Assembly (NCBI GenBank): GCA_937907455.1
Contig: CALESQ010000120.1
Span: 35,447-99,446, forward strand
Source of the DNA: an uncultured Caldilineales bacterium
GTDB lineage: Bacteria > Chloroflexota > Anaerolineae > JAAEKA01
DNA length: 64,000 nucleotides
Direction: 5' to 3'
Numbering within the stretch: position 1 is the first letter of the stretch; every line of letters starts with the position of its first letter. Of this stretch, positions 1-15,341 are shown in pieces. A program made the translations under genes and the position numbers. The notes beneath the pieces are model-generated. The model did no database searches and had not been told where the DNA came from. It saw only the letters and a program-made list of their open reading frames with translations.

Positions 1-248
1 AGGGGCGCGCGCGCGCACCAGGAACTGCGGCAGGCTGTGGGCGCGAAAGAGCCGCTCAGCAGGCCATTGAAAATCAACAATGGGCTGGCTGGATCATCCC
101 AGGCGCGGGTGGGGTTGAAATCCTGCCAAAACAGCCATGCGGCGTAGCCGCTGCCGAGCAAAAAGCGTCGCGCCTCTACGGGATCAACCGCGCAGCGCTG
201 CATGTCTCCGCTGGACAGATCAACGTGCAGGTAGAAGCCAGAGATCAT
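1..248 (-). CDS. aldehyde:ferredoxin oxidoreductase (AOR) family protein, N-terminal fragment (gene runs off window start)
   Basis: Minus-strand ATG near 248 preceded by AAGGAT RBS; translation MISGFYLHVDLSSGDMQRCAVDPVEARRFLLGSGYAAWLF...LIFNGLLSGSFAPT follows the conserved AOR N-domain pattern (VDLSxG...RxFLGGRGLAA...LIFAAGPxxG). Not in ORF track because truncated. Confidence 0.5.
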   Translation of the reverse strand, partial: MISGFYLHVDLSSGDMQRCAVDPVEARRFLLGSGYAAWLFWQDFNPTRAWDDPASPLLIFNGLLSGSFAPTACRSSWCARAP

Positions 249-321
249 AGGTATCCTTGTGTAACACGTAACTCAGAACTTGACATCTTTGCAGTCGCAA
301 ATCGCCAATCCGGGTTACGAG

Positions 322-1788
322 TTACGCATTACTCGTTAGAAATCCTGCCAACTCTGCTTTTAGTGCGTGTAACGACGCAAGCTGCACATACATCATGTGG
401 CCGGCTTCGTAGTAGCTCATGCTGATGTTGGCGTGCAGGCTCTTGTCCAGACCGAGGTGATTGAAGGTGTAGCGGGTGGCGAAGTAGGGCGTGGCCAGGT
501 CGTAATAGCCGTTGGCTACATGGACGCGCAGGTGTGGGTTGTTGCTGATAGCGCTGCGCAGCTTTTCGGCCACGTTGACGTATTGGTTCTCGAACTCTTT
601 GTAGCTCCAGTTCTGATACAGCCCCTTGAGGATTTCGTAGGGTAGGTCGCTTTCGTAGCCCAGGTCGCTGCGCACATAATCGTTGAAACAGGCGGTGTAC
701 GCGCCCAAAATGGCTGAGTAGCTGGGATCAGACTCGGCGTGTTCGCCCACAGCGTCGCGGTCAATGCCGGTGTAGCGGCTGTCCAGGCGACCTACAGTGC
801 GTTGCTCGCGGCGTAGCAGCTCTTTGGTGAAGCGGAAGATATCAATACGCAGGTCGCTGCGCTCGACATAATCCTGACTAAGGCCGGTGAAACGGGCCAA
901 CTGCGCGGCGACTCGGCTACGCTGGGCCGCTGGGAGGGCTGCGCCGTGCAGCAAAGCTGCTGCGTAGTCATTTAAGGTGAATTCTTCGACCTGTTGCAGT
1001 AATTCAGTTAAAGGAAGGGCTTGCAGCTCGGCGGGCAGGCGATGGTGGTACCAGGCAGTGGCCGCGTAGGTGGGCAGGAAGAGCAACGGCGGCAGGTCGT
1101 TGCCGGGGTTAAAGTCGGCAGTCTGGAAGTTGAGGATGCTGGACACTAGCATGATGCCGTTTAGCCAGAGGCCGTGACGTTCTTGCAGGTACTCGCTGAG
1201 GCCGGCAGCGCGTGTAGTGCCGTAGCTTTCGCCGATGAGGTATTTCGGGGATAACCACCGACGATAGCGGGTGGTGTAGAGGCGGATGAAATCGCCTACG
1301 GATTCGATGTCTTTTGTGTAGCCGTGATAGTTTTTGGCCTTTTCGCCCACCACGGCGCGGCTGAATCCCGTGCTGATGGGGTCAATGAAAACGAGGTCGC
1401 TGGTATCCAGCAGGCTGGCGTCATTGTCTACCAAGCGATAGGGCGGACGCAGGCTAAAGCCTTCGTCATCTAACAGCACGCGTCGCGGGCCGAGCAGCCC
1501 CAGGTGCATCCACACGGAGGAGGAGCCGGGGCCGCCGTTGAAGGAAAAGGTGACGGGCCGCGCTGTGGGGTCGGCTACGTCGTCGCGGGTGTAGGCGATG
1601 AAGAAGAGCGAGGCTTTGGGCTTTTCGCCCTCAGATGCGCCGTCGTCGTCGCCGCTCTTTTCGGCTTCCTCGCGCAGTACTAGTGTGCCCGCGGTGGCGG
1701 TGTAGGTGATGACCTGGCCGTTGAGGGTGATGCTGTGGTGGGTGATGATGAGGTTGTCTTGCGGGATGGAAGGGGTTGTTTCGGTCAT
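322..1788 (-). CDS. S10 family serine carboxypeptidase
   Basis: 488-aa ORF; motifs FNGGPGSSS and GESYG typical of peptidase S10. Confidence 0.7.
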   Translation of the reverse strand: MTETTPSIPQDNLIITHHSITLNGQVITYTATAGTLVLREEAEKSGDDDGASEGEKPKASLFFIAYTRDDVADPTARPVTFSFNGGPGSSSVWMHLGLLGPRRVLLDDEGFSLRPPYRLVDNDASLLDTSDLVFIDPISTGFSRAVVGEKAKNYHGYTKDIESVGDFIRLYTTRYRRWLSPKYLIGESYGTTRAAGLSEYLQERHGLWLNGIMLVSSILNFQTADFNPGNDLPPLLFLPTYAATAWYHHRLPAELQALPLTELLQQVEEFTLNDYAAALLHGAALPAAQRSRVAAQLARFTGLSQDYVERSDLRIDIFRFTKELLRREQRTVGRLDSRYTGIDRDAVGEHAESDPSYSAILGAYTACFNDYVRSDLGYESDLPYEILKGLYQNWSYKEFENQYVNVAEKLRSAISNNPHLRVHVANGYYDLATPYFATRYTFNHLGLDKSLHANISMSYYEAGHMMYVQLASLHALKAELAGFLTSNA

Positions 1789-2219
1789 TGTTGATGCTCC
1801 GGGTTTGGGGAGGCTCTTACCCCCGGCCCCTCCCCCTGGGGGAGAGGGGAGTGTGTGCTTTCCGGTTTTCTCTCCCAGGGGGAGAGGGTTAGGGTGAGGG
1901 TCAAATCCAGCAGCATCACCCCCACGGCGATCAGCTTGCGGTTGGCTGCTACCAGTGTCACCGAGGCGATATCATGCTGGCTGGTGAGTAGTTGGCTGCG
2001 CTCCAATTCCATGCCGAACAGCACGTCTGCGAGCGCGGCTACGATCACCCCCTGCACGTGCGCCTGCTGCGCGGGGAGATCGCCCAGCGCAGCCAGCCGC
2101 GCGGCATTGCGTACTTGAACATCGGCAACGCCAGCCGCATGTACCGCGCCCGCGGGCAGTTCAACCGGCTCCTCGGTGTTCCAGGGCAGACTGTGCCACG
2201 GTGACGGCTCAAAGGCCAT
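1785..2219 (-). CDS. hypothetical small protein; C-terminus encoded by REP-like element; stop overlaps S10 peptidase start (ATGA)
   Basis: ATG at 2219 directly after CoA-transferase stop (2209-2211); frame stays open through the palindromic element to 1785. No recognisable family; may be a non-coding spacer instead. Confidence 0.3.
   Translation of the reverse strand: MAFEPSPWHSLPWNTEEPVELPAGAVHAAGVADVQVRNAARLAALGDLPAQQAHVQGVIVAALADVLFGMELERSQLLTSQHDIASVTLVAANRKLIAVGVMLLDLTLTLTLSPWERKPESTHSPLPQGEGPGVRASPNPEHQQ
1816..1901. repeat. REP/MITE-like palindromic element, copy A
   Basis: CCCCGGCCCCTCCCCCTGGGGGAGAGGGG ... CTCTCCCAGGGGGAGAGGGTTAGGGTGAGGG; nested inverted repeats; near-identical arms recur at 43976-44096. 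Confidence 0.6.
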
Positions 2220-3441
2220 TGCCGCGACGCTCCTGCAAGCCGGTGATGATACCTTCTTCGTGTAGCCGAGCGATGCCCGCGGCGTCGTAACCCAGTTCGG
2301 CGGCGATTTCATCGCTGTGTTCGCCCAGCCGCGGGGGCGCAATGCGGTAACTCATCGGCGTGCCAGAGAAGTGACCCGGAAAGGCCAGCGACTTGAACAT
2401 GCCCAGCCCGGGATGCTCCATTTCCACGATCATGCGCCGCGCCTGGATGTGCGGATCGTTGAGCGCCTCGTCCACGGCGTAGAGCGGGCCGCCGGGGATT
2501 TCCGCTTCGTTGAGCAGCTCAACCCATTCGTGCGCGGGCCGCGCGGCCAGCAATTCATCCAGGATCGGCGTCAACTGGTCACGGTTGACGTTGCGCAGCG
2601 CGTTGGTGGCAAAGAGGGGGTGCGTCACCAGCGATGGATCCGCGTGGATCACCTCGCAAAACTTGCGCCAGAGCCGTTCGCTGCCTGCGGCCACCACGAT
2701 CCACTTGCCATCGCCCGCCTTGAAGGGCTGATAGGGGGTAATGGTCGGGTGCTGGTTGCCGGTTTTGATCGGGGCGTTACCGCTGACCCAATAGTTGCTC
2801 GCCAGATAGCTCGTCCAATTGAGCTGCGATTCGACCAGGCTGATGTCGAGTGCCTGGCCGACACCGGTATGCTGGCGGGCCAGCAGCGCGGCCAGCACGC
2901 TGATCAGCGCGTAAAGACCCGCGCTGAAGTCGGCCATCGCCATCGGGAAGCGCATCGGGGGATCGCCCTGCTCGCCGGTCAGTTCCATCAAACCGCCCAT
3001 CGCCTGCGCCACGATGTCGAAGCCGCTGCGGTCGGCATACGGCCCGCTGCGGCCAAAGCCGGTGATGCTGACGTGGATCAACTTGGGGTTGCGCGCCAGA
3101 CAGGCTTCGGCAGAAAGGCCGTATTTGTCCAGCGAGGCTTGCCGCGGCAGGTTAATCAGGAAGACGTCGGCGTCGTCGAGCAGGCGATGGAAGATTTCCA
3201 GCCCCTCCGGCTTGGTGTAGTCCAGCGCCAGGCCGCGCTTGTTGCGGTTGGTGGAGAGGAAATAGCCGCTTTCACCCTCGATAAAGGGGGGGCCCCAGCC
3301 GCGACACACATCGCCGATGCCTGGCTGTTCGATCTTGATGACGTCTGCGCCCATGTCGCCGAGGTACATGCTGCATGTCGGCCCGGCCAGCGCCTGAGTA
3401 AGATCAACGACTTTGATATTTTGGAGAATGGTGGGGGTCAT
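2209..3441 (-). CDS. CoA-transferase family III (CaiB/BaiF/formyl-CoA transferase-like)
   Basis: 410 aa; N-terminal VVDLTQALAGPTCSMYLGDMGADVIKIE signature of family III CoA-transferases. Confidence 0.8.
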   Translation of the reverse strand: MTPTILQNIKVVDLTQALAGPTCSMYLGDMGADVIKIEQPGIGDVCRGWGPPFIEGESGYFLSTNRNKRGLALDYTKPEGLEIFHRLLDDADVFLINLPRQASLDKYGLSAEACLARNPKLIHVSITGFGRSGPYADRSGFDIVAQAMGGLMELTGEQGDPPMRFPMAMADFSAGLYALISVLAALLARQHTGVGQALDISLVESQLNWTSYLASNYWVSGNAPIKTGNQHPTITPYQPFKAGDGKWIVVAAGSERLWRKFCEVIHADPSLVTHPLFATNALRNVNRDQLTPILDELLAARPAHEWVELLNEAEIPGGPLYAVDEALNDPHIQARRMIVEMEHPGLGMFKSLAFPGHFSGTPMSYRIAPPRLGEHSDEIAAELGYDAAGIARLHEEGIITGLQERRGNGL

Positions 3442-3535
3442 AATGGTGAATGGTGAGCGGAAGGGAATGGCAGATTGGTATGCCTTCGGCGGGTAGATAG
3501 GTAGTTGCTGAATTTACGTCTGGCTGGTGTATAAA

Positions 3536-4303
3536 TTACTGTTTACCGTCTGCCGCGCCGCGCAGCACGGCAATGATCTCGGCCATGATGGCAACGGCGA
3601 TCTCGGCGGGTGTGTGTGCGGCGATGTCGAGGCCGATGGGCGCGTGGACGCGGGTGAATTTCGTCGCAGGGATGCCCTGCCCGCGGCTGAGCAGATCGAA
3701 CACGGTGCGTATACGGCGCTTGCTGCCGATCATGCCGATGTAGGCCAGTGGCGTGTCCAGCACTTCCAACAGACATTCGACGTCGTGCTGATGGCCGCGG
3801 GTAACGAGTACGAGATAGCTGTCGGTATCCAGGCGGCCCGCAGCCACCCAGTCGCGCATGGTTTCGCGCAGCGGCGTAGCCAGCACGTTGTCAGCCTGCG
3901 GGAAACGTTGACGATTGGCGTATTGTGGGCGGTCGTCCAGCACGGTGATGGTGAAATCGCACAGCTTGCCGAGCTGCGCCAGCGGCACGGCGATGTGTCC
4001 GGCTCCGACGATGATCAATTCGGGTGGACGATGCTGTACCTCAACGAAAACCTTCACCTGGCCGGTGGGTGTGGGGTAGGTCAGGGTTTTGTGAACCCGG
4101 CCAGCCAGCGCGCTCTGGGCATCTGCCAGCACTTGCACTTCCAAGTTGCCGAGGCCAAGCTCGCTGAGCGGCTCGGCATCCAGCCAGACCAGCGCGTGCC
4201 GACCCAGCAGAGCCGCTTCGGGCGCGGCGGTAATTGTCGCCAGCGCGACCGGACGATGCGCTTCCAGGGAGGTGATGAGGGAGGAGAGGAGAGGGGGCAT
4301 CAT
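3536..4303 (-). CDS. XdhC/CoxI family protein, C-terminal Rossmann-like domain (molybdenum hydroxylase maturation)
   Basis: IIVGAGHIAVPLAQLGKLCDFTITVLDDRP motif; ORF-track N-terminal Arg-rich extension (to 4540) judged spurious, start placed at MMPPLL (4303). Confidence 0.65.
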   Translation of the reverse strand: MMPPLLSSLITSLEAHRPVALATITAAPEAALLGRHALVWLDAEPLSELGLGNLEVQVLADAQSALAGRVHKTLTYPTPTGQVKVFVEVQHRPPELIIVGAGHIAVPLAQLGKLCDFTITVLDDRPQYANRQRFPQADNVLATPLRETMRDWVAAGRLDTDSYLVLVTRGHQHDVECLLEVLDTPLAYIGMIGSKRRIRTVFDLLSRGQGIPATKFTRVHAPIGLDIAAHTPAEIAVAIMAEIIAVLRGAADGKQ

Positions 4304-4377
4304 GGTCAATGGGTGGGGAAATGATCGATTTCCAAGTTTTAATAGCCGACGGTCAATGAAAGGGGAGGGTTTCCTGC

Positions 4378-4698
4378 TTAAAGCTGGCCTTGCCAGCGCT
4401 CCACAAACACGTTGAAGATGCCGCCGCAGACGCCGAGGCTTTGCATGGTGGGGTCTTCGGTGAGGTCTACGCGCACGGTGGCAGGCTGGCCGGTTTGAAT
4501 GACATCCAGCGCGGCCAGGATCACATCCCCTTCGCCGCAACCGCCGCCCACCGTGCCATAGTGTTGCCCCAGCGGGTGGATGATCATTTTTGCGCCCACC
4601 TCGCGCGGCACACTGCCGCGCACCTCGGTGATGGTGGCTACGGCTACGGTTTCGCCGCTGCGCAGGTACTCATGCAGCTTGTGGTAAAAGGTGTCCAT
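4378..4698 (-). CDS. XdhC/CoxI family protein, N-terminal domain (separate ORF)
   Basis: 106 aa; TVGGGCGEGDV motif of the XdhC N-domain; immediately upstream of the C-domain ORF on the same strand. Confidence 0.6.
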   Translation of the reverse strand: MDTFYHKLHEYLRSGETVAVATITEVRGSVPREVGAKMIIHPLGQHYGTVGGGCGEGDVILAALDVIQTGQPATVRVDLTEDPTMQSLGVCGGIFNVFVERWQGQL

Positions 4699-4705
4699 TA
4701 GCGGC

Positions 4706-5317
4706 TTACTCCTGACGACTTACTCTGTACTGTTCGCGGGTGTCGAGGTCGGTCAACACGCTGGGAGTGTCTACAGGCAGGTAGGTAATCTCCGCGGCGT
4801 GTTGTTGAAGCACGCTGCGCAAGGTGTTATCCCAGGAAAGGGCGAGGATTTCAGGCCACAGCCGCCGTGGCAGGGTGATGGGATGGCCGCGGCGCATGGC
4901 ATAGCTGGGTACGATCAGCCCGCCACCGTCGCCGACGCGGAAAGCCTCCACTACCTGCCGCGCCACCGGCGCTTCCATTTGGGGCTGATCAGCCAGAGCC
5001 AGCAGCGCGCCCGCGCTTTGGCTATCTGCGGCAGCCAGCGCCGTTTGGATCGAGGAGAGCATTTCGCCGCTATGGTAGTGGGGGTTGCGCACGCAGCGCA
5101 CTGCATATCCCCGCAGTCGCGCTTCGATTTCTTCACCGCGGTGGCCAGTGACGATGATTATTTCGTCTACTGCTGCGGCCAACAGTGTGTTGACTACGGT
5201 TTCTATGACAGTGGCAGTGCCCCACGGCAGCAACGGTTTGGGCAGGGGGCCGCCCATACGCGACGACAAGCCCGCTGCTGGCACAATGGCGCTGATTCGG
5301 TGCGCATGCGATGTCAT
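4706..5317 (-). CDS. MobA-like NTP transferase (molybdenum cofactor cytidylyl/guanylyltransferase, MocA/MobA family)
   Basis: Start placed at MTSHAHRISAIVPAAGLSSRMGGPLPKPLLPW (nucleotidyltransferase P-loop-like motif); the ORF-track extension to 5554 runs through the octamer repeat array and is judged spurious. Confidence 0.7.
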   Translation of the reverse strand: MTSHAHRISAIVPAAGLSSRMGGPLPKPLLPWGTATVIETVVNTLLAAAVDEIIIVTGHRGEEIEARLRGYAVRCVRNPHYHSGEMLSSIQTALAAADSQSAGALLALADQPQMEAPVARQVVEAFRVGDGGGLIVPSYAMRRGHPITLPRRLWPEILALSWDNTLRSVLQQHAAEITYLPVDTPSVLTDLDTREQYRVSRQE

Positions 5318-5322
5318 GGCGC

Positions 5323-5352
5323 GATTATAGCATGGGGCGTGTCCTATGAGAA
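5323..5352 (-). promoter_or_regulatory. putative sigma70 promoter for mocA; -10 TATAAT ends 6 nt before the ATG (leaderless transcript), weak -35
   Basis: minus-strand TATAAT at 5328..5323; -35 TTCTCA/TCTCAT-like 17-18 nt upstream. Confidence 0.35.
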
Positions 5353-5470
5353 TTTTTCGCGTACGGGCAATGGTTGGAAAAATGGACAACCGAGAATTGT
5401 CCGGGTGAATTCCATGCACCAATTGCGCTTGCCGTGCAGCGATGTCAGTGTTACAATGCCGGTGATCACT

Positions 5471-5541
5471 ATGCAAGTAGACAAGTAGACAAGTAGACAA
5501 GTACACAAGTACACAAGTACACAAGTATGCAAGTAGACAAG
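5471..5541. repeat. 8-nt tandem repeat array (AGACAAGT/ACACAAGT/ATGCAAGT x9) in divergent mocA / chbG-like intergenic region
   Basis: direct reading; period 8; on the minus (mocA) sense strand reads CTTGTCTA/CTTGTGTA. Confidence 0.8.
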
Positions 5542-5609
5542 CCATACGGGTCACCTTTACTCTTTACCTCTTACTCCCAGCTCATTACTCCTTACTCTCT
5601 GCCTGCAAC

Positions 5610-6443: not shown

Positions 6444-6504
6444 GGCCGCTTACCGATCACTTGACCAACCTCGTCAAATCGTGTATCATGCCGCAGGCTG
6501 TTTT

Positions 6505-6600
6505 GGGGGTGGATGTGTCCCGGTGGGCGCCCCGGTCTTCAAAATCGGTGGTGGGTGCCGCACAGGCAGCCACGGTGGGTTCGACTCCCATCCACTCCCG
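6505..6600 (+). tRNA. selC: tRNA-Sec (selenocysteine tRNA, anticodon UCA)
   Basis: Hand-folded: 8-bp acceptor stem (GGGGGTGG/CCACTCCC, one GU), 6-bp D-stem with 4-nt D-loop, anticodon loop CTTCAAA (UCA), long variable arm (~25 nt with stem), T-arm GTGGG-TTCGACT-CCCAT with GGTTCGACTCC identical to E. coli selC, discriminator G; 8/5 acceptor/T architecture typical of bacterial tRNA-Sec. Coordinates +/-2. Confidence 0.75.
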
Positions 6601-6643
6601 CTCTGCAGCCCCGCTTGCCCTCTGTAATTCCGGCGAAAAGGCT

Positions 6644-7123
6644 ATGTTTGAGCAACCTCTTGAGTTTTTCCACGAAGACCAGCCGCCGCATATGCTGCGT
6701 GGTCAGGCCCTGCCCTATCCCGATCTGCAACGCGTGTGGGTGCGCGTGCAACTTGCCCCCTTTGCCGGCCACCCTGAGCTGGAGATGGTCATCCTCGACT
6801 CTGCCGCTCAGCCTGTGGCCAGCATGATCATGGTAGACGTGCAGTTTGCCTATGTTTCCCTTACCTTGCACCTGAAACAACCGCAGCCCGCTGCCCCCTA
6901 CACGCTGCTGTTGCGCCTCACCCGCGATCATACGTTGCTTGATCAGCGTGCCGTTCCCTTTGTCCTTACCTTCGTCGAGCGCGACCAGGCCAAAGCCGAG
7001 GCTGAGGGCATGATTTGGCCGGAGCGCGGGGTGCCCATTACCCCCCTCACCCCTGAAGACGATCTCTCTGAGCCGTTGCCCGAGGATATACTCGCACTCT
7101 CCTCTCTCAACGGTGCCTCTTGA
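6644..7123 (+). CDS. hypothetical protein (159 aa)
   Basis: ATG at 6644 with AAAAGG upstream; ORF-track start 6461 rejected because it overlaps tRNA-Sec; no recognisable domain. Confidence 0.45.
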   Translation: MFEQPLEFFHEDQPPHMLRGQALPYPDLQRVWVRVQLAPFAGHPELEMVILDSAAQPVASMIMVDVQFAYVSLTLHLKQPQPAAPYTLLLRLTRDHTLLDQRAVPFVLTFVERDQAKAEAEGMIWPERGVPITPLTPEDDLSEPLPEDILALSSLNGAS

Positions 7124-7229
7124 TGCAGGGCCGCTGTCCCTGAACCGCGGACTTCATTCAGTTTTATCCCCTGTTGCTGGCCTTTTCCGGCAGTGCGCCG
7201 GTCTATCTTTTATTTCGGCTCGGAGGCGT

Positions 7230-8594
7230 ATGGCAGCGATCAACTCTGCAATCAGCACTTATCTCGATTTAGCAACCCCGCAGGTTTTGGCCGATTCATG
7301 GGGGCAGTTGCAAGACGCCATGCGTAGCGACCATTTGCTGTTTGGCGAACGCTTGCTCTGTTCCGCTCTGCGTCCGCAATTTGTCACCGTGGCTGAGTGG
7401 AAAACCGCCAGCACCATGAGCACCACCCTGGTTTCCGCTTTTCACAAGGCCTATCAGGCCATGTTGAGCAGTCCGGCTTTGCGCGGGCAGGTGTGGCTCA
7501 CTCCTGAGGAAGAAACTCTGGTTGCCTGGGAGGCCGAAACGCATCTGCCTGTGCCCATTGGCCGCCTCGATTGCGCCTTGATCCACGATGCCGGTGGCGG
7601 TGACCCCGCACTGCGCCTGCTGGAGTATAATGCCGAAAGCCCCGCGGCCATTGCCTATGAAGATGGTCTGGCGCGGGCTTTTTTGCAGACGCCGTTGCTG
7701 CGTGCCTTTCAGCAGCATGTCGTCGCGCGTCCGCTTTGGGCCATGCCCGCAGCCCTGCAAACCCTGCTGCACATCTACCGCGCCTGGGGAGGGCGTACCC
7801 TGCCCACCATAGCTATCGTAGATTGGCAAGGTTTGCCCACCCAGCACGAGTTTTTGCTCTTCCAGGCCTATTTTGCCCGTCACGGCATTCGCGCTCTTAT
7901 TGTTGATCCAGATGCGCTCAGCTATCAGGGCGGGGTATTGCGGGCCGCGGGGGAACCGGTGGATTTTGTCTACAAGCGCATTCTTACCCACGAGTTGTTG
8001 GCGCGCTATGGCTTGCAGCATCCCCTTATTGATGCCGTGCGCGAGCGTGCGGTGTGCATGATGAATCGCTTTTCCTGCAAGCTGTTGCACAAAAAGGCCA
8101 GTCTGGCTTTGCTAAGCGACGAGGACAATGCCGCTCTCTTCAACCCGGCCGAACAAGCAGCCATTGCCCGTCACATTCCTTGGACGCGGCGCATGGAAGA
8201 ACGCCATACCCAGTTTGCCGGTGAGGAAATTGACCTGTTGCCCTTTGTGTTGGCTAATCGGCAGCGCCTTGTGCTCAAACCCAACGACGAGTACGGCGGC
8301 AAGGGCGTGGTGCTGGGCTGGGATGTAGAAGATGCCCAATGGCAGCAGGCTGTGGCCGATGCACTCGCTCAGCCCTCGGTGGTGCAAGAGCGAGTACCGT
8401 TGGGTAGCGAGCTGTTCCCCGTAGTCCTGCCAGATGGCAGCTTCGATATTCAGCCCCGCCTGGTAGATTTTGACCCCTTCATCTTTGACAACACCTATGC
8501 CGGCGGTTGTCTCACCCGGCTTTCTGCCGGTGGCCTGCTTAACGTGACTGCCGGGGGCGGTACCACCGTGCCCACCATGGTTGTGGCAGCGTAA
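7230..8594 (+). CDS. circularly permuted ATP-grasp superfamily protein (type-2 CP-ATP-grasp / glutathionylspermidine-synthetase-like amidoligase)
   Basis: 455 aa from ATG 7230 (GGAGG RBS); the ATP-grasp lysine/glycine-rich loop LKPNDEYGGKGVVLGWD sits near the C-terminus instead of mid-protein, as in circularly permuted ATP-grasp families. Confidence 0.5.
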   Translation: MAAINSAISTYLDLATPQVLADSWGQLQDAMRSDHLLFGERLLCSALRPQFVTVAEWKTASTMSTTLVSAFHKAYQAMLSSPALRGQVWLTPEEETLVAWEAETHLPVPIGRLDCALIHDAGGGDPALRLLEYNAESPAAIAYEDGLARAFLQTPLLRAFQQHVVARPLWAMPAALQTLLHIYRAWGGRTLPTIAIVDWQGLPTQHEFLLFQAYFARHGIRALIVDPDALSYQGGVLRAAGEPVDFVYKRILTHELLARYGLQHPLIDAVRERAVCMMNRFSCKLLHKKASLALLSDEDNAALFNPAEQAAIARHIPWTRRMEERHTQFAGEEIDLLPFVLANRQRLVLKPNDEYGGKGVVLGWDVEDAQWQQAVADALAQPSVVQERVPLGSELFPVVLPDGSFDIQPRLVDFDPFIFDNTYAGGCLTRLSAGGLLNVTAGGGTTVPTMVVAA

Positions 8595-8813
8595 TCGTAA
8601 GCCATCACTGTTTTCTTGGAGACTGTTTAAAAAGCCTTAATCAGTGGTTTCGATACGCTGTTTTGACTGAAACACCGCGTCGGTTGCGGGCGTTATACTC
8701 AAAAACACGCCGGTTGGACGGGCTAACCCGCTACTCAACCACCTTGTTCACTGTGAAATACCGTTTTAAGCAGCTTCTTACTCCTTACTCTTTTTGATCC
8801 CCCAGGAGCCGCC

Positions 8814-9956
8814 ATGTCTACCCCGCCCAGCCTGCGCCTCGGCATCGAGGAAGAATACCAGATTGTTGACCCCGAAACGCGCACCCTGCGCTACATCATC
8901 ACGCGCACGCCCAGAGACGAGCGACCCGTGTTGCGCGGGACTGAGGGCGATACCCCCCTCGAACCGCCCCTGGCCAAGCTGATGGCTGACCTTGCCAAGC
9001 CCGTCTTCAATAGCGCCGCTGAGCTGGGTGAGGCGCTGATCGAACAGCGCCGCGCGGTGTGCCAGATGGCCAGCGACCGTGGCCTGTGGGTTGCCGCCGC
9101 CGGTACACATCCCTTTGCCGCCTGGTCGCAAACCAGCACCCCGTTGCATGGTCGCTATGAGGGTCTCACCGAAGAAATGCGTGCCGTAGCCAAGCGCCTG
9201 TTGATCTTTGGTGCCCACATCCATGTGGCTATCGAAGACCCCGGCATGGCGATTGATTGCATGAACACCGTGCGCTACATGCTGCCGCACCTGCTTTGCC
9301 TCTCCACCAGCTCGCCCTTTTTCGCCGGACATGACACCGGCCTTAAATCATACCGGGCGATTTTGCACGAAAACCTGCCGCGCAGCGGCGTCCCGCACGA
9401 ATTCGCCTCGCCCGATGAATACAAGCACTACGTAGAGTTGCTCATCAAAACGCACTGTATCCGCGGCGAAAACGATATTTGGTGGGATGTGCGTCCGCAT
9501 CGTCAGCCTTCGTCGCTGGAGTTTCGTTTGTTTGACATGATGCCCGCAGTAGAGGACACCATCGGTCTGGTGGCCGCCGTGCAGGCGGTGGTAGCCTGGC
9601 TTACCGATCTGCGCGGCCACAACATCAGCTTCCGCCTCTACCCGCGCAGCCTGATCGAAGAGAACAAATGGCGCGCCGAACGCTATGGCCTGGACGGCAA
9701 GCTGATTGATTTCGGCAAAGAGCAGCAGTTGCCCGCGCGTACCCTGGTGCGTGAGCTGTTGCGCCTGGCCGATCCCTATGTCGAGCGGCTTGGTTCGCGC
9801 CGCCAGATAGACCACCTCTACCAGGTGATCGAGCGCGGCACCAGCGCCGACCGCCAACGCCGTGTCTATCAGCAAAATGGTGGTAAGAAAAACCACAACG
9901 CTGCATTGATCGCCGTGGTTGATGCACTCGTCGCCGAAACCATGATCTGCCGCTAG
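8814..9956 (+). CDS. carboxylate-amine ligase, YbdK / glutamate-cysteine ligase family 2 (GCS2), paralog 1
   Basis: 380 aa; [18 protein letters not shown]-terminus and overall YbdK-like layout. Confidence 0.8.
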   Translation: MSTPPSLRLGIEEEYQIVDPETRTLRYIITRTPRDERPVLRGTEGDTPLEPPLAKLMADLAKPVFNSAAELGEALIEQRRAVCQMASDRGLWVAAAGTHPFAAWSQTSTPLHGRYEGLTEEMRAVAKRLLIFGAHIHVAIEDPGMAIDCMNTVRYMLPHLLCLSTSSPFFAGHDTGLKSYRAILHENLPRSGVPHEFASPDEYKHYVELLIKTHCIRGENDIWWDVRPHRQPSSLEFRLFDMMPAVEDTIGLVAAVQAVVAWLTDLRGHNISFRLYPRSLIEENKWRAERYGLDGKLIDFGKEQQLPARTLVRELLRLADPYVERLGSRRQIDHLYQVIERGTSADRQRRVYQQNGGKKNHNAALIAVVDALVAETMICR

Positions 9957-9998
9957 CGATGCAGCATGGCGAATTGAAACCCCTGCGAGAACACATCC

Positions 9999-11147
9999 AT
10001 GATAACCCGTCCCTCCCTCACTGTTGGCATCGAAGAAGAATATCAGATCATTGAGCCCGGCACGCGCGAGTTAAAATCCTTCATCACCCAGTTTATGGAA
10101 TCCAAAGAGGGCGCGATGGAGATAAAAAAGGGCGAGTTGAAAGCTGGTGTCAAGCCAGAACTGCACGCCTCGATGGTCGAGCTGGGCACCCCGGTCTGCG
10201 CCAACGTAGCCGAGCTGAAAAGCGCACTCTTCGCCCAGCGCAATTCTATTTTTGAGCTGGCCGCGCAGCGCGGGCTGCAGATCGCCGCCGCCTCTACCCA
10301 TCCCTTCTCGCATTGGCTGGGACAAGAGATTTCTCCCTATGAGCGCTACGCCAAGACCGTGGAAGATCACCAGATGATCGCCCAGCGCATGTTGATCTTT
10401 GGCATGCACGTACACGTCGGTGTGGAAGACCGCGACTTTGCCATTGATTGCATGGATACCGTGCGCTACATGCTGCCGCACATCCTGGCCCTCACCACCA
10501 GCTCTCCCTTCTGGGCCGGTCGTCAAACCGGTCTGAAGTCCTATCGCTCCGTGGTGTTCGAGGATTTACCCCGCACCGGCCTGCCGGAAAGTTTTTCTTC
10601 ATGGGCGCACTTCGATCGTTTTGTGCAGCGCCTGGTTAACACCGGCTGCATCGCTGATGGTTCCAAGATCTGGTGGGATGTGCGCCCCCACTATGCCTTC
10701 CCTACACTGGAATTCCGCGTGCCCGACATCTGCACCCGCGCTGAAGAGGCCGTAGCAGTGGCTGCGCTGCTGCAAGCCATCGTCGCCTGGCTGTGGGAGC
10801 TGCGTCGCCGCAACATGACCTTCCGCAGTTATCGCCGTGATTTTATTGCCGAAAACAAGCGCCGCGCCCTGCGCAACGGTCTCGATGGCATGATGATTGA
10901 CTTCGGCAAAGAAATCGAAGTACCCACCCGCCAACTGGTGCGTGAACTGTTGCTGCTGGTAGACGAGCAGATTGACGAGTTGGGCAGCCGTGACGAAGTT
11001 GAAGTGATCTACCGCATTTTGGAGGACGGCACCAGCGCCGACCGACAGGTCAAGGTGTACCAGGAGCATGGCGGTGATGCCAATCGCGCCGAAGCTCTGC
11101 GCGCCGTGGTAGATCACCTGGTGCAGGAAACCGCTGAAGGGATTTAA
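9999..11147 (+). CDS. carboxylate-amine ligase, YbdK / GCS2 family, paralog 2
   Basis: 382 aa; [17 protein letters not shown]; roughly 50% identical to the upstream paralog (tandem duplication). Confidence 0.8.
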
Positions 11148-11148
11148 T

Positions 11149-12339
11149 GTGCCTGTTTTAGCACTGCGTCGCACTGCTGTTGCGGTGTTGATTTTCTGCC
11201 TGGCTGCGCTGGCACTGCTGGGGATGCCGGTGCTGGCGCGTCCGTTGCCCTCAGCACCACCCCTTGCCTTTTGCCCCGACTACGACGGCAACGGTCAGGT
11301 AGACGCCGCCGACATTACCCGCATTGCCGCATTGTGGGGTGGTTCCGCGCCCGATCCCCGGTTTGATTTCGATGATGACCCCACGGTGACAGTGAGCGAT
11401 GTCATGGCGGTGGCGGCGCGCTTCGGCTCTGCCTGCGCCGCCGGCAGCGGCTGTCTGTTCTTTCCACCCGATAACATCTGGAACGCCCGCGTTGATGCGC
11501 TCCCTGCCGATGCCAACTCGGCGGCCTACGTGCAGGCCATTGGTACGGCCGCCGGGCTGCATCCTGACTTTGGCGCCGGTTTGTGGGATGGCGGCCCTAT
11601 TGGCATTCCTTTCGTTGTCGTGCCCACCGTTCAACCGCCTGTGGCTGTGGCCTTCGACTACGCCGACGAGAGCGACCCCGGCCCTTATCCCATTCCCACC
11701 GCTGCGCCCATCGAGGGTGGCCCAGACAGCGATGGTGACCGCCATGTGCTGGTGTTGCGCAACGGCGATTGTCGCCTGTTCGAGACCTATTATGCTTGGC
11801 CCACACCTGATGGCAGTTGGTACGGCGGTTCGGGTGCAGTGTTTGATCTCAATGCACACGCCCTGCGTCCAGCAGGCTGGACTTCAGCCGATGCCGCCGG
11901 TCTGCCCATTCTGTCGGGGCTGGTGCGCTACGACGAGATAGCCAGCGGACGAATTGAGCATGCCCTGCGCTTCACCGCTCCGCGCACCCGTCGGGCCTAT
12001 GTCTGGCCCGCACGTCATTATGCTTCCAGCCTCACCGACCCCGCCCTGCCGCCCATGGGACAGCGCTTCCGCCTGCGCGCCGACTTCGATGTGTCCGGTT
12101 TTTCATCGGTCAACCGCGTGATTTTGACAGCACTCAAAGAATATGGAATGATGCTGGCTGACAATGGCTCCGCCTGGTATCTTTCAGGCGTGCCCGACGA
12201 ACGCTGGGACAACGCCGATCTGCATCAATTGCAGACCGGCGTCCACGGCTCGGATTTCGAGGCTGTAGATGTTTCCGGCTTGCTGCTGCACCCCGACTCG
12301 GGTCAGGTCAGGCCGACCTCTGCGCCATCATCACCCTGA
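11149..12339 (+). CDS. secreted protein with N-terminal signal peptide and dockerin-like calcium-binding repeats
   Basis: GTG start; hydrophobic signal; DYDGNGQVDAADITRIAALWG and DFDDDPTVTVSDVMAVAARFG dockerin type-I-like repeat pair; rest of protein without recognisable family. Confidence 0.5.
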   Translation: MPVLALRRTAVAVLIFCLAALALLGMPVLARPLPSAPPLAFCPDYDGNGQVDAADITRIAALWGGSAPDPRFDFDDDPTVTVSDVMAVAARFGSACAAGSGCLFFPPDNIWNARVDALPADANSAAYVQAIGTAAGLHPDFGAGLWDGGPIGIPFVVVPTVQPPVAVAFDYADESDPGPYPIPTAAPIEGGPDSDGDRHVLVLRNGDCRLFETYYAWPTPDGSWYGGSGAVFDLNAHALRPAGWTSADAAGLPILSGLVRYDEIASGRIEHALRFTAPRTRRAYVWPARHYASSLTDPALPPMGQRFRLRADFDVSGFSSVNRVILTALKEYGMMLADNGSAWYLSGVPDERWDNADLHQLQTGVHGSDFEAVDVSGLLLHPDSGQVRPTSAPSSP

Positions 12340-12515: not shown

Positions 12516-13766
12516 ATGTCGCATCTTGCTGACGCCCGCTGGCCGCTGCCACAGGGGGTTGTGGATCTACTCTACGAAGACGCCGCCGACAAGCGCGGCC
12601 TGGAAGCCGCCCTGCGCGGTTGTTTTCGCGTTTGGAGCTACGACGAGCTGATTGCACCCACCTTTGAGTATGCCGATACGTTGGCCTCGGAGGCAGGCAC
12701 GCAGCTTGCCGAAGAGATGTACCGCTTCACCGACCGTGATGGCCGCACCCTGGCCCTGCGCCCTGAACTGACCATCCCCGCCGCGCGCGTGGCGGCCACC
12801 CGGCTCTACGACCAAGCCATGCCACTGCGTCTGTGCTACATCGGCCCGGTGTTTCGCTACGAAGCACCTCAGGCCGGGCGTCAGCGTGAGTTCACTCAGG
12901 CAGGCGTGGAGCTGATCGGCGCCGCTGGCCCCGCGGCCGATGCCGAGGTGCTGGCGCTCACTGCCGAGGCACTGCGCACCGCCGGGCTTACCCGTTTTCA
13001 GCTTGCTCTCGGCCAAATGGCCTTTTTTCATGCCCTGCTGGTTGAGTTGAACCTCACGCCGGTCGCCTTGCATACGCTGCAAAGCGCGTTGGACCGCAAA
13101 AACGCCGCTGATATTGCCGCGGCGCTGGCAGCCATCCCCGCCAGCCCTGCCCTGCACCGCACGTTGCTGGCCCTGCCCGCCTTGTCCGGTGGCCCCGTCA
13201 TTCTCCACACTGCCCGCACCCTTTGCCTGAACCCAGCAATGACCGCGGCACTCGACCATCTGGCTGCGCTGCATGAGTTGCTGCACGGCTATGGTGTGGC
13301 CGATCACATCACTTTCGACTTGGGCGAGACCCGTGCCATGCAATATTATACCGGCATCACCTTCAAGGGGTACACGCCCGGCGTCGGTTTTGCCATTTGT
13401 TCCGGCGGGCGCTACGATGACCTGCTGGCTCATTTTGGGCGGCCTCAGCCCGCTGTGGGCTGTGCGCTTTGGGTGGATAGAATAGCCCTGGCGCGGCAGC
13501 GGCAGGGCTGGCAGCCTTCCCCACTGCGTGCCGATCTGCTGTGGCTGGGGGAACTTTCGCCTGCCTGCCTGGCCGCGCTGATCGAGCTGCGCCGCCGCGG
13601 CCTGCGCGTAGAACTACACCTGGGCGATGCCGCTGTTGATGTTCAGTCGGCCCGCGCGCCGCGCCTGGCCCATTGTGTGGATGCAGATACCGTGCGGCTG
13701 CGCACCGCCGAGGGCACGCGCACGCTGTCCATCACCGCGCTGATGCACGAGGCTGCCACATGGTAA
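12516..13766 (+). CDS. hisZ: ATP phosphoribosyltransferase regulatory subunit HisZ (HisRS paralog)
   Basis: 416 aa class-II aaRS-like (YRFTDRDGRTLALRPELT, GPVFRYEAPQAGRQREF); followed by short-form hisG. Confidence 0.8.
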   Translation: MSHLADARWPLPQGVVDLLYEDAADKRGLEAALRGCFRVWSYDELIAPTFEYADTLASEAGTQLAEEMYRFTDRDGRTLALRPELTIPAARVAATRLYDQAMPLRLCYIGPVFRYEAPQAGRQREFTQAGVELIGAAGPAADAEVLALTAEALRTAGLTRFQLALGQMAFFHALLVELNLTPVALHTLQSALDRKNAADIAAALAAIPASPALHRTLLALPALSGGPVILHTARTLCLNPAMTAALDHLAALHELLHGYGVADHITFDLGETRAMQYYTGITFKGYTPGVGFAICSGGRYDDLLAHFGRPQPAVGCALWVDRIALARQRQGWQPSPLRADLLWLGELSPACLAALIELRRRGLRVELHLGDAAVDVQSARAPRLAHCVDADTVRLRTAEGTRTLSITALMHEAATW

Positions 13767-14425
13767 ATCGTCTGGCTGCTGATCGCCTGGTGGTGGCACT
13801 ACCCAAAGGCCGCTTGCTGGAGGAAGCCCGCACTTGTCTGGAGCAGGCCGGTTATGGCCTGCGTGCTGGTGACAACGACCGCCAATTACTGTTGCCTTCT
13901 GCCGCACCGCACCTGAGCTACGTGCTGGCCAAGCCCGGTGATGTGCCGGTGTATGTGGAAAACGGCGCTTGTGATTTGGGCATTGCTGGTCTCGATGTGC
14001 TGCGCGAGCATCAACCCGATCTGCTGGAGCCGCTGCTGCTGCCGTTTGGCTACTGCCGCCTGGCCGTAGCTGGGCCTGCAGCACGCGGTGATCATCCGTT
14101 GCGGCTGGAGCCGAACCCGCGCGTAGCTACCAAGTTTCCCCGCCTGACCGAGGCTTTCTTTCGCAGCCGAGGGGTCAGCGCCGAGATTATCGAGTTGTCC
14201 GGCAGTGTCGAGCTGGCCCCGCTGGTAGATCTGTCTGATCTGATTGTGGATCTGGTGCAGAGCGGTCAGACGCTGCACGACAATGGACTGCGTGAGCTGC
14301 GCGTGGTGCTGCACAGCCAGGCCGTGCTGGTAGCCAACCGCGCGGCGTGGCGGCTGAAAACCGCCGTGATCGAGACTTTTGTGGCCGATCTGCGCCGCGC
14401 GGTGGAGGAAATGTCCAATGCCTGA
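13760..14425 (+). CDS. hisG: ATP phosphoribosyltransferase, short form
   Basis: MVNRLAADRLVVALPKGRLLEEAR...; about 221 aa; 7-nt overlap with hisZ. Confidence 0.85.
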   Translation: MVNRLAADRLVVALPKGRLLEEARTCLEQAGYGLRAGDNDRQLLLPSAAPHLSYVLAKPGDVPVYVENGACDLGIAGLDVLREHQPDLLEPLLLPFGYCRLAVAGPAARGDHPLRLEPNPRVATKFPRLTEAFFRSRGVSAEIIELSGSVELAPLVDLSDLIVDLVQSGQTLHDNGLRELRVVLHSQAVLVANRAAWRLKTAVIETFVADLRRAVEEMSNA

Positions 14426-15341
14426 ATTTACCGTCCGCCCTGCCGCCAGGCAGGAATTCGCCGCGTTTGTCGCCTGGTACATCGAAGAGCGCAGCCGCGA
14501 TCCGCGCTTTGCTGCCACCGCGGGCAATGCCTGGCAGCGTTTTCTGTTTCGACGCTGGGTGTTGCCGCGCTATCTGCGCACGCGTACCAATCAACTGGTA
14601 TTGGAACAGGATGGCAGCTTCGCAGGCTTTGCCGTGGTTGAGCAGGCCGGTGACACCGTCACTCTGAGCGAATTCCGTGTAGAGCCGGGCTTTGCAGTGC
14701 CTGAACTGCTTAAGGCACTGCTGGCTGCTGTTGAAACACTGGCACGCGACCGCGAATATCGCTATGTGCGTCTGGCTCCGCTTGATAGCAGCGCCGAACA
14801 CCTGGCGCTCTACCGGGCTGCGGGCTATGAGCTGCTGGACTACTACCTGTGGAGCTACCGCGGTGAGCTGACAGGCGAGGTTGCCCCTGCCGGCCTGACG
14901 CTGCGCTCTCTGTTGCCGCGCGATGGCCTCAGCGAGCGCCTGCACTGGCTGGCTATCGAAATGGACGCCTCGGCGGTGGTGGCGCGCGAGCTGATTGACA
15001 GCAGCCTGCTGCCGCAGCGCCCTTCACCTTTCCCTTCATATCGCATTGAACAGCACGGCGACGCGGTAGGTTATGTGTCAGTACGCGCGGATGAGCGCAA
15101 TGATGGGGTGCTGTCGCTGGCGCTTTCGCTTCAACCGGCTCTGTGGGGCAGCGAGATCGAGACGCAGGCCGTGCTGGCTGCCGTGGCTACCCACCGCGCC
15201 GCAGCGCCGGTGGCGGTGCGCATCATGCTCAACACCACGGCACATGCCGACCGCGCCGAAGCGGTTTACAGCCGCCTCGGTCTTAGCCGCATGTTGGATG
15301 ACCGGCCTTTGCTGGTGAGGGATTTGGCTGCGCTGCCGTAG
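14418..15341 (+). CDS. GNAT-like N-acetyltransferase (apparent tandem GNAT folds) embedded in his operon
   Basis: ATG 14418 overlapping hisG stop; weak GNAT-like features; no specific family recognised. Confidence 0.4.
   Translation: MPEFTVRPAARQEFAAFVAWYIEERSRDPRFAATAGNAWQRFLFRRWVLPRYLRTRTNQLVLEQDGSFAGFAVVEQAGDTVTLSEFRVEPGFAVPELLKALLAAVETLARDREYRYVRLAPLDSSAEHLALYRAAGYELLDYYLWSYRGELTGEVAPAGLTLRSLLPRDGLSERLHWLAIEMDASAVVARELIDSSLLPQRPSPFPSYRIEQHGDAVGYVSVRADERNDGVLSLALSLQPALWGSEIETQAVLAAVATHRAAAPVAVRIMLNTTAHADRAEAVYSRLGLSRMLDDRPLLVRDLAALP

Follow-up and report, generated by a model that had tools for sequence, protein, structure and literature searches.

A conserved amide-ligase cassette of a permuted ATP-grasp enzyme and YbdK/GCS2 ligases in Chloroflexota and Gemmatimonadota

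Gene content of the locus

Predicted carboxylate-amine ligases of two different folds, a circularly permuted ATP-grasp enzyme and two enzymes of the GCS2/YbdK family, are encoded side by side in the 64,000-nucleotide stretch analysed here (the window), which belongs to contig CALESQ010000120.1 of an uncultured Caldilineales bacterium. A first-pass annotation, made from the letters of the window alone, had described five open reading frames (ORFs) on the + strand between 6644 and 12339 as an amidoligase cassette; all five lie where it had put them, and the gene calls in the public record of an identical metagenomic contig (L219; compared loci are cited in the same way throughout) agree, giving products of 159, 454, 380, 382 and 396 amino acids (aa). 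From the distribution of these genes among other genomes, assisted by a tree of the GCS2 proteins and by structure prediction, we hypothesize that the operon-like cassette of ligases builds a small γ-glutamyl-type compound. The features of the locus are as follows.

6461-6489, upstream of selC: promoter-like site (10 of 12 matches, consensus scan)
6505-6601, + strand: tRNA-Sec gene (selC), called by ARAGORN and by Rfam RF01852 (71 bits, E=1.4e-13)
6644-7123, + strand: small cytoplasmic protein of 159 aa, a predicted β-sandwich of no known family
7187-7201, + strand: terminator-like GC hairpin with T-run, in the gap that separates the small and ATP-grasp genes (consensus scan only)
7230-8594, + strand: circularly permuted ATP-grasp ligase with a predicted fold of the glutathione-synthetase/GspS type; half of the conserved core
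8814-9956, + strand: GCS2/YbdK carboxylate-amine ligase, upstream paralogue (A)
9999-11147, + strand: GCS2/YbdK carboxylate-amine ligase, downstream copy (B); the other half of the core
11149-12339, + strand: probably secreted dockerin-like protein, outside the conserved cassette

The gaps between the five ORFs are, in order, 106, 219, 42 and 1 nt, so that the short spacing originally reported holds for the last two and not for the first two. The co-directional string also extends past the cassette into a histidine operon (HisZ at 12516, hisZ-hisG), and co-directionality alone is therefore weak evidence for a cassette. The hairpin at 7187-7201 is not conserved; in L009 only 24 nt separate the small gene from the ATP-grasp gene. 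A hidden small ORF or RNA in the 219-nt gap (8595-8813) was considered and rejected, as the gap is not conserved among close relatives (about 21 nt in L009); an Rfam scan of it gave no match. In a close relative of the locus, the spacer between the ATP-grasp gene and the first GCS2 gene (L001:11363-11665) is packed with short repeats in tandem, some of them CACGGATAATCGTCTGAAT-like and others runs of CACCGAT, which have no counterpart in the window.

Conservation of the core pair

A scan that took one genome per species gave 80 loci from Chloroflexota and Gemmatimonadota, 65 with enough flanking sequence to read the order of the ATP-grasp and GCS2 genes and 48 with both flanks. By BLAST against all ORFs of these loci, a GCS2 gene on the same strand comes after the ATP-grasp gene in 57 of the 65 (18/18 in Gemmatimonadota, 39/47 in Chloroflexota and other genomes), and this adjacency is not a matter of chance. 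The invariant core of the cassette is the ATP-grasp gene together with the downstream GCS2 gene (9999-11147). A relative at 78% identity (L001) keeps the gene order of the window through the dockerin-like gene and into the histidine operon; the Caldilinea relatives L004-6, at 50% identity, share only the ATP-grasp gene and two GCS2 genes, and their flanks are entirely different. The proposal of a conserved, uncharacterised amidoligase neighbourhood is thereby upheld, with gene order kept in relatives and across two phyla.

The permuted ATP-grasp ligase

The assignment of the 7230-8594 product to the circularly permuted ATP-grasp proteins agrees with a Pfam match, a profile match and structural matches, and no other family took its place. 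The match to CP_ATPgrasp_2 (PF14403, E=2.5e-7) spans profile positions 86-373 of 374 with 30.4 bits, short of the gathering cut-off of 32 bits, and many homologues have a precomputed PF14403 match; by sequence, the protein is a divergent relative, and not a clean member, of CP_ATPgrasp_2. A profile built from 12 sequences of the family matches PDB 3n6x, a 'putative glutathionylspermidine synthase', at E=1.4e-9. Its homologues are 453-460 aa long and can be aligned from residue 1, which identifies the ATG at 7230 as the start of the gene. Among the invariant motifs of the family are E132-x-N134 and K350-P-N-D-x-Y-G-G-x-G (with G356-G357); these E-x-N and K-P-x-x-x-x-G-G-x-G motifs resemble the nucleotide- and metal-binding motifs of glutathione synthetase.

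With the AlphaFold model of the protein (pLDDT 88.8), the top PDB matches returned by Foldseek are human, plant and yeast glutathione or homoglutathione synthetases, matched over the whole length (E 1e-15 to 1e-19, TM 0.68-0.74, probability 1.0, identity 12-17%), and the next are Cp1B, E. coli GspS, YjfC/YgiC and trypanothione synthetase, GspS and YgiC likewise with probability 1.0. All of these proteins join a small-molecule carboxylate to an amine, Cp1B being a fungal E-64 ligase (PMC12568646). At 12-17% identity, such matches fix the fold and the type of reaction, and not the substrate. Pfam at E<=0.01 gave no match to GSH_synth_ATP or GSH_synthase, and none to GSP_synth, the likeness to GspS being one of fold only (E about 1e-12); a sequence-profile search of PDB with the family at E<=1 returned no glutathione synthetase.

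The two GCS2 ligases

Both GCS2 genes pass the thresholds of their families. Pfam GCS2 (PF04107, cut-off 21 bits) matches A with 156.5 bits (E=1e-45) and B with 199.8 bits (E=8e-59), the NCBIfam equivalog NF010039 ('carboxylate-amine ligase', cut-off 371 bits) scores 408 and 489 bits, and the two proteins match the YbdK structure 1r8g at E=5e-44 and 2e-30. Their identity of 49% agrees with the earlier estimate of about 50%; the recent tandem duplication that had been suggested for them does not stand. A neighbour-joining tree puts every single GCS2 copy and every downstream copy in one group (B), and the upstream copies (A) fall outside it; the outgroup was an E. coli YbdK sequence, and the A/B split is independent of the rooting and confirmed by motif differences. 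A and B are old paralogues. Where Chloroflexota and Gemmatimonadota have a single GCS2 gene after the ATP-grasp gene, its orthologue in the window is the B copy.

Of 98 alignment columns with a conservation of 95% or more in the B type, A keeps 62. The A type lacks K52, E54, H56 and Q109, which are invariant in B, and in the A copy of the window the residues of the B-type pocket are replaced. The A copy of the window retains E12-14, H101, R116, H137, H139, R229, E238, R240 and D243 and has intact motifs (IEEEY, HIHV, WWDVRP, LEFR), and the N-terminal E-E-E, H-x-H, WWDxRP and LEFR motifs are present in both GCS2 copies of the window. The residues that we take to be catalytic are so called from the conservation of the family and from general knowledge of γ-GCL. 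These motifs are altered in the A copies of a monophyletic Caldilinea-type group (L004-6, L013, L015, L019, L021, L023, L027, L028, L037 and L072), where they read RVH, L/RYDxM/TP and LV/LxR, equivalent to H137R, R229M/T/L and E238V/L. By these substitutions the A copy of the Caldilinea-type clade is probably a pseudoenzyme. The decayed copy is still kept in every locus of the clade, which has neither the small protein nor the additional, classical ATP-grasp gene described below.

The extended gene string

Clustering of the neighbouring genes showed that the core pair elsewhere belongs to a longer string, which starts with the small protein (where present), an S8 peptidase, a PF00756 esterase and a classical ATP-grasp protein, continues with the permuted ATP-grasp ligase and one or two GCS2 genes, and ends with a Ddl/L-amino-acid-ligase-like ATP-grasp protein in Chloroflexota or with a PuuD-like γ-glutamyl amidase (Peptidase_C26, E=3e-60) in Gemmatimonadota, where the amidase follows GCS2 in 15 of 16 loci. 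Full strings are found in L040 (3538-11569), L050, L036, L039, L051, L086 and L045; the 64-kb window has none of the additional genes of the string.

No Pfam family matches the classical ATP-grasp protein (about 310 aa), which shows weak similarity to RimK and matches ATP-grasp domains in PDB at E=7e-9. Its distribution is tied to that of the A copy: among the 48 loci with both flanks, all 17 without the classical ATP-grasp gene have two GCS2 genes, and 27 of the 31 that possess it have at most one. The two ligases are complementary, and the window shows the form with an A-type GCS2 where other loci have the classical ATP-grasp protein. The latter is also 64-70% identical between Gemmatimonadota and Chloroflexota, far above the conservation of its neighbours. 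Examples of its gene are:

L086:7004-7978
L040:6713-7636
L039:2447-3370

The S8 peptidases are apparently intracellular and combine an N-terminal CxxC...CxxC motif, zinc-ribbon-like, with a C-terminal glycogen-binding CBM48/AMPK1_CBM domain. Such a peptidase gene is followed by the esterase gene in L036, L039, L040, L051, L097 and L098. A role in anti-phage defence was considered and rejected, PADLOC having given only generic subtilase matches. Examples of the peptidase genes, each followed by a PF00756 esterase gene, are:

L054:4588-6249
L040:3963-5825
L097:8426-10333

The small protein and its linkage to selC

The 159-aa protein had been described as belonging to no recognisable family, and a scan of Pfam and NCBIfam indeed gave no match even at E<=10. 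In its AlphaFold model (pLDDT 83), residues 17-107 form a β-sandwich of seven strands and residues 113-121 a short helix, while the acidic tail is disordered; the fold resembles carbohydrate-associated Ig-like domains, a generic match. The family is small, with 81 close homologues and, among 1.84 billion proteins, 210 cluster representatives; nearly all homologues are stand-alone proteins of 110-145 aa, and the most distant ones sit in unrelated contexts. YPYPDLxRLWxR, TxHL, Y86, D100 and LxF are invariant, and LD is also part of the signature. There is no invariant Lys and no conserved C-terminal Glu or Gln, and the tail is variable, ending in NGAS, NGAE, CDM or EETP and missing in L010/L011.

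In most loci that have the core pair, among them every one from Gemmatimonadota, an iterated HMM search found no small-protein homologue. The absence of the small protein there, together with the lack of conservation of its tail, rules it out as an obligatory substrate of the core enzymes, contrary to the suggestion that it might be the target of the ligases; a variable or absent tail also argues against a C-terminal attachment site like that of Pup or LysW. Among loci with two GCS2 genes, the small gene goes with intact motifs in the A copy, a pattern that reflects essentially one clade. It lies directly before the S8/CBM48 peptidase and esterase genes in L097/L098, where no ligase is encoded within 8 kb; it overlaps the start of the peptidase gene in both and is 3 nt away from it in L040. 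A 138-aa upstream gene in Caldilinea was considered as a homologue and rejected, since its product looks like an unrelated membrane protein.

Overlooked in the first-pass annotation was the tRNA-Sec gene at 6505-6601, which ends 42 nt before the small gene and whose linkage to it is conserved. Its position excludes a longer, TTG-started ORF and places the start of the small gene at the ATG at 6644. A tRNA-Sec gene lies directly 5' of the small gene in the window and in L001-3, L007-11, L036, L040, L050, L096-98, L114, L144, L167 and L170, the two being on the same strand and 31-326 nt apart in the window, L001-3, L007-L011, L036, L040, L050 and L096-L098. Examples of these tRNA-Sec genes are:

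L001:9174-9271
L040:3116-3211
L097:7789-7885
L096:334-429

The linkage occurs in several divergent lineages of Chloroflexota and is independent of what follows the small gene, be it an ATP-grasp gene, an S8 peptidase gene or another; it persists even where the ligase genes lie elsewhere. None of about 60 loci without the small gene has a tRNA-Sec gene. In the reverse direction, a scan of metagenomes with a tRNA-Sec pattern found the small gene next in 4 of 70 loci with usable downstream sequence, followed in these four by an esterase, S8 or ATP-grasp gene. The small protein as a general companion of selC was rejected on that count; it is the first gene of the system wherever the system or its remnant adjoins selC. 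The linkage may reflect retained ancestral synteny, co-transcription or a real connection to selenium. A selenoprotein in the cassette was also rejected, as no internal in-frame TGA occurs in the homologues of the cassette proteins from any of the loci retrieved.

Flanking genes

The dockerin-like gene (11149-12339), counted at first as part of the cassette, is found only in the close relatives L001, L002 and L007 and is absent from all more distant loci; in L009, with 66% identity in the ATP-grasp protein, the second GCS2 gene is directly followed by hisZ. The gene is a lineage-specific insertion and no member of the cassette. Its product scores 15.9 bits with Dockerin_1 (PF00404; E=0.015), below the gathering cut-off of 22.9 bits, and has a weak dockerin-like pair of calcium-binding loops at residues 44-91; homologues at 72-77% identity have both PF00404 and the NCBI name 'dockerin type I'. 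The protein is probably secreted, to judge from a signal peptide recognised by inspection only. Its C-terminal 290 aa or so (window 11440-12339, residues ~100-396) form a domain with at least 8000 database relatives, at up to 77% identity, which carry different modules on the N-terminal side (dockerin, FN3, Big-like); neither a Pfam family nor a PDB sequence matches the domain.

Further downstream, a gene of about 307 codons with only faint acetyltransferase matches lies between hisG and hisA (14379-15341 region; L219:17189-18112) and is also conserved in L001. Upstream, the - strand of 1-5554 (also L219:1172-8088) encodes a MocA/YgfJ-like cytidylyltransferase, two XdhC-like proteins, a CoA-transferase and an aldehyde:ferredoxin oxidoreductase, a neighbourhood for maturation of a molybdenum or tungsten cofactor that adjoins selC; the 4706-5554 ORF reaches too far in the 5' direction, the gene having 203 aa in the public call.

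Discussion

The enzymes of the cassette belong to known superfamilies, and the prediction of amidoligases from gene context is an established idea; full-text searches of the accessible literature found no characterisation of the ATP-grasp family of 7230-8594 or of its pairing with GCS2. The cassette itself falls within none of the systems with which we compared it, namely those of glutathione synthetase, GspS, Pup/PafA, LysW and Alpha-E/transglutaminase. The eukaryotic-type glutathione and homoglutathione synthetases (PDB 2hgs, 3kal, 1m0w) share the permuted ATP-grasp architecture over their whole length, and the partner GCS2 comes from a family that includes γ-Glu-Cys ligases; however, identity is low, no Pfam family of glutathione synthetases is matched, and the cassette always has a third ligase and often hydrolases. 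The nearest relatives in sequence are CP_ATPgrasp_2/GspS-like ligases (3n6x, E. coli GspS, YgiC/YjfC), members of which are likewise uncharacterised and predicted from context; the window protein differs in falling below the Pfam gathering cut-off and in having a GCS2 ligase as partner. Iyer et al. reportedly predicted, in 2009, neighbourhoods of ATP-grasp, Alpha-E and transglutaminase genes; no Alpha-E or transglutaminase-like gene is found among the Pfam-annotated neighbours within 10 kb in L001, L004 and L219.

Both GCS2 genes of the window are clear members of the YbdK/GCS2 ligases (PDB 1r8g, 1tt4; EgtA; archaeal GshA), but differ from these in being fixed in a cassette with a ligase of the glutathione-synthetase fold and in that the pocket of the A paralogue is altered, the paralogue being degenerate in one clade. 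The Pup-PafA/Dop and LysW/LysX systems also encode a small protein beside paralogous carboxylate-amine or ATP-grasp ligases. Pup, however, is a disordered modifier with a conserved C-terminal GGQ/GGE and LysW a zinc-ribbon carrier with a conserved C-terminal Glu, whereas the small protein of the window is predicted to be a folded β-sandwich, and its tail is variable or absent. None of the window ligases matches a Pup-ligase or RimK/LysX family in Pfam or NCBIfam (two score as GCS2), and no proteasome gene is found within 10 kb. Pseudouridimycin biosynthesis was considered as a precedent for GCS2 combined with ATP-grasp and rejected, since PumK and PumM are both ATP-grasp proteins and not GCS2.

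We propose, with a probability of roughly 0.5, that the operon-like cassette builds a small, glutathione-like peptide or conjugate of γ-glutamyl type in successive acyl-phosphate steps; its substrates, the order of its steps and its product are suggested by analogy with the enzyme families. The B-type GCS2 (9999-11147) would activate a carboxylate, by this analogy the γ-carboxyl of glutamate, and join it to an amino acid such as cysteine; the ATP-grasp enzyme (7230-8594) would activate the new C-terminal carboxylate and add a further amino acid or amine; and the A-type GCS2 (8814-9956) would carry out a third ligation, performed in most other lineages, presumably, by the classical RimK-like ATP-grasp enzyme encoded upstream of the permuted one. 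The small β-sandwich protein would be an accessory partner of the A-type GCS2 here and of the module of S8/CBM48 peptidase and esterase elsewhere. In Gemmatimonadota the PuuD-like amidase would turn the product over, and its position after GCS2 fits a small γ-glutamyl amide.

Several observations weigh against this proposal. The match of the ATP-grasp enzyme to the glutathione synthetase fold has an identity of 12-17% only. Simple glutathione synthesis takes two ligases, and the three or four ligases, the esterase and the S8/glycogen-binding module found elsewhere do not fit it. The decay of the A copy in the Caldilinea-type clade means that the third ligation cannot be general, so that the two successive steps that the first-pass annotation assigned to the GCS2 pair are plausible for the window and not for the family at large. 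The small gene occurs only in loci with two GCS2 genes (14/23 versus 0/32 in the 80-locus set), and in L087 it lies directly before a GCS2 pair with no ATP-grasp gene, which hints at a role at the level of a protein.

The two observations on the small gene favour the main rival explanation, that the system modifies a protein or peptide, with the small protein or a protein recruited by it as acceptor or scaffold for a peptide tag that, in other lineages, the S8 peptidase and esterase process or remove; the likeness would be a loose one to Pup/PafA/Dop or to pathways that use a scaffold peptide. The contacts of the small gene with the peptidase gene in L097/L098 and L040 point the same way, as does the finding that, in loci with two GCS2 genes, the A copy has lost its catalytic residues where the small gene is absent and kept them where it is present; the terminator-like hairpin after the small gene, seen in the consensus scan, is of a kind common after precursor genes. 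Yet this loss and decay belong to a single clade and count as one evolutionary event, most core-pair loci do without the small protein, and neither its folded β-sandwich, unlike Pup or LysW, nor its unconserved and sometimes missing tail, with no invariant Lys or C-terminal Glu/Gln, suits an acceptor. The nearest structural relatives of the ATP-grasp enzyme, moreover, all act on small molecules. We regard protein modification as unlikely, though deserving of attention.

A second rival would reduce the system to plain synthesis of glutathione, or of γ-Glu-Cys plus glycine, in which B acts as GshA, the ATP-grasp enzyme acts as a GshB of eukaryotic style, and the remaining genes are unrelated neighbours. 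The GCS2 family, by its NCBIfam names, includes γ-Glu-Cys ligases, and YbdK, EgtA and archaeal GshA belong to it; the best structural matches of the ATP-grasp enzyme are glutathione synthetases. The genome of Thermomicrobium roseum (Chloroflexota) is reported to lack canonical gshA and gshB (PMC2615216), and a Thermomicrobiales metagenome-assembled genome (L038) has the core pair. Against this explanation, a third ligase is always kept, either the classical ATP-grasp enzyme or the A-type GCS2, the esterase, S8/CBM48 peptidase, C26 amidase or fourth ATP-grasp protein recur in the string, and the ATP-grasp enzyme has no Pfam match to glutathione-synthetase families at E<=0.01; it seems to us somewhat less probable again than modification of a protein.

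Lower still we would place the idea that the small protein founds an undescribed system anchored downstream of selC, in which paralogous GCS2 ligases and ATP-grasp ligases add a modification of peptide or ester type to the protein or to a ligand bound by it, and the S8/CBM48 peptidase and esterase process the modification; such a system might possibly be linked to the handling of selenium or thiols. Slimmer yet is the chance of a granule or polymer system, whose ligases would build or decorate a polymer inside the cell, for instance a poly-amino acid or amino-acyl esters on glycogen, with peptidase and esterase for turnover and the β-sandwich protein for binding. The glycogen-binding domain of the intracellular S8 peptidase, the esterase that follows it in six loci and the resemblance of the small protein to carbohydrate-associated Ig-like domains speak for it, but that fold match is generic, the window and its whole clade have no peptidase or esterase within reach, and no polymerase-type domain is present. 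Chance adjacency, to which the unconserved dockerin-like gene and the histidine operon in the same string lend some colour (tight packing is not shared function), is already refuted for the core pair by its retention in two phyla amid different flanks and deserves hardly any credence.

Chloroflexota and Gemmatimonadota are abundant phyla in the environment, and many of their members carry the cassette. Three of its features offer handles for experiment: the conserved linkage of the tRNA-Sec gene to the small gene, the exchange of classical ATP-grasp enzyme and GCS2 paralogue, and the decay of the latter, which has probably become a pseudoenzyme in one clade. If the proposal of a glutathione-like product is true, both phyla would have a pathway for a redox buffer or γ-glutamyl metabolite, and the poorly understood YbdK/GCS2 family would gain a defined partner enzyme.

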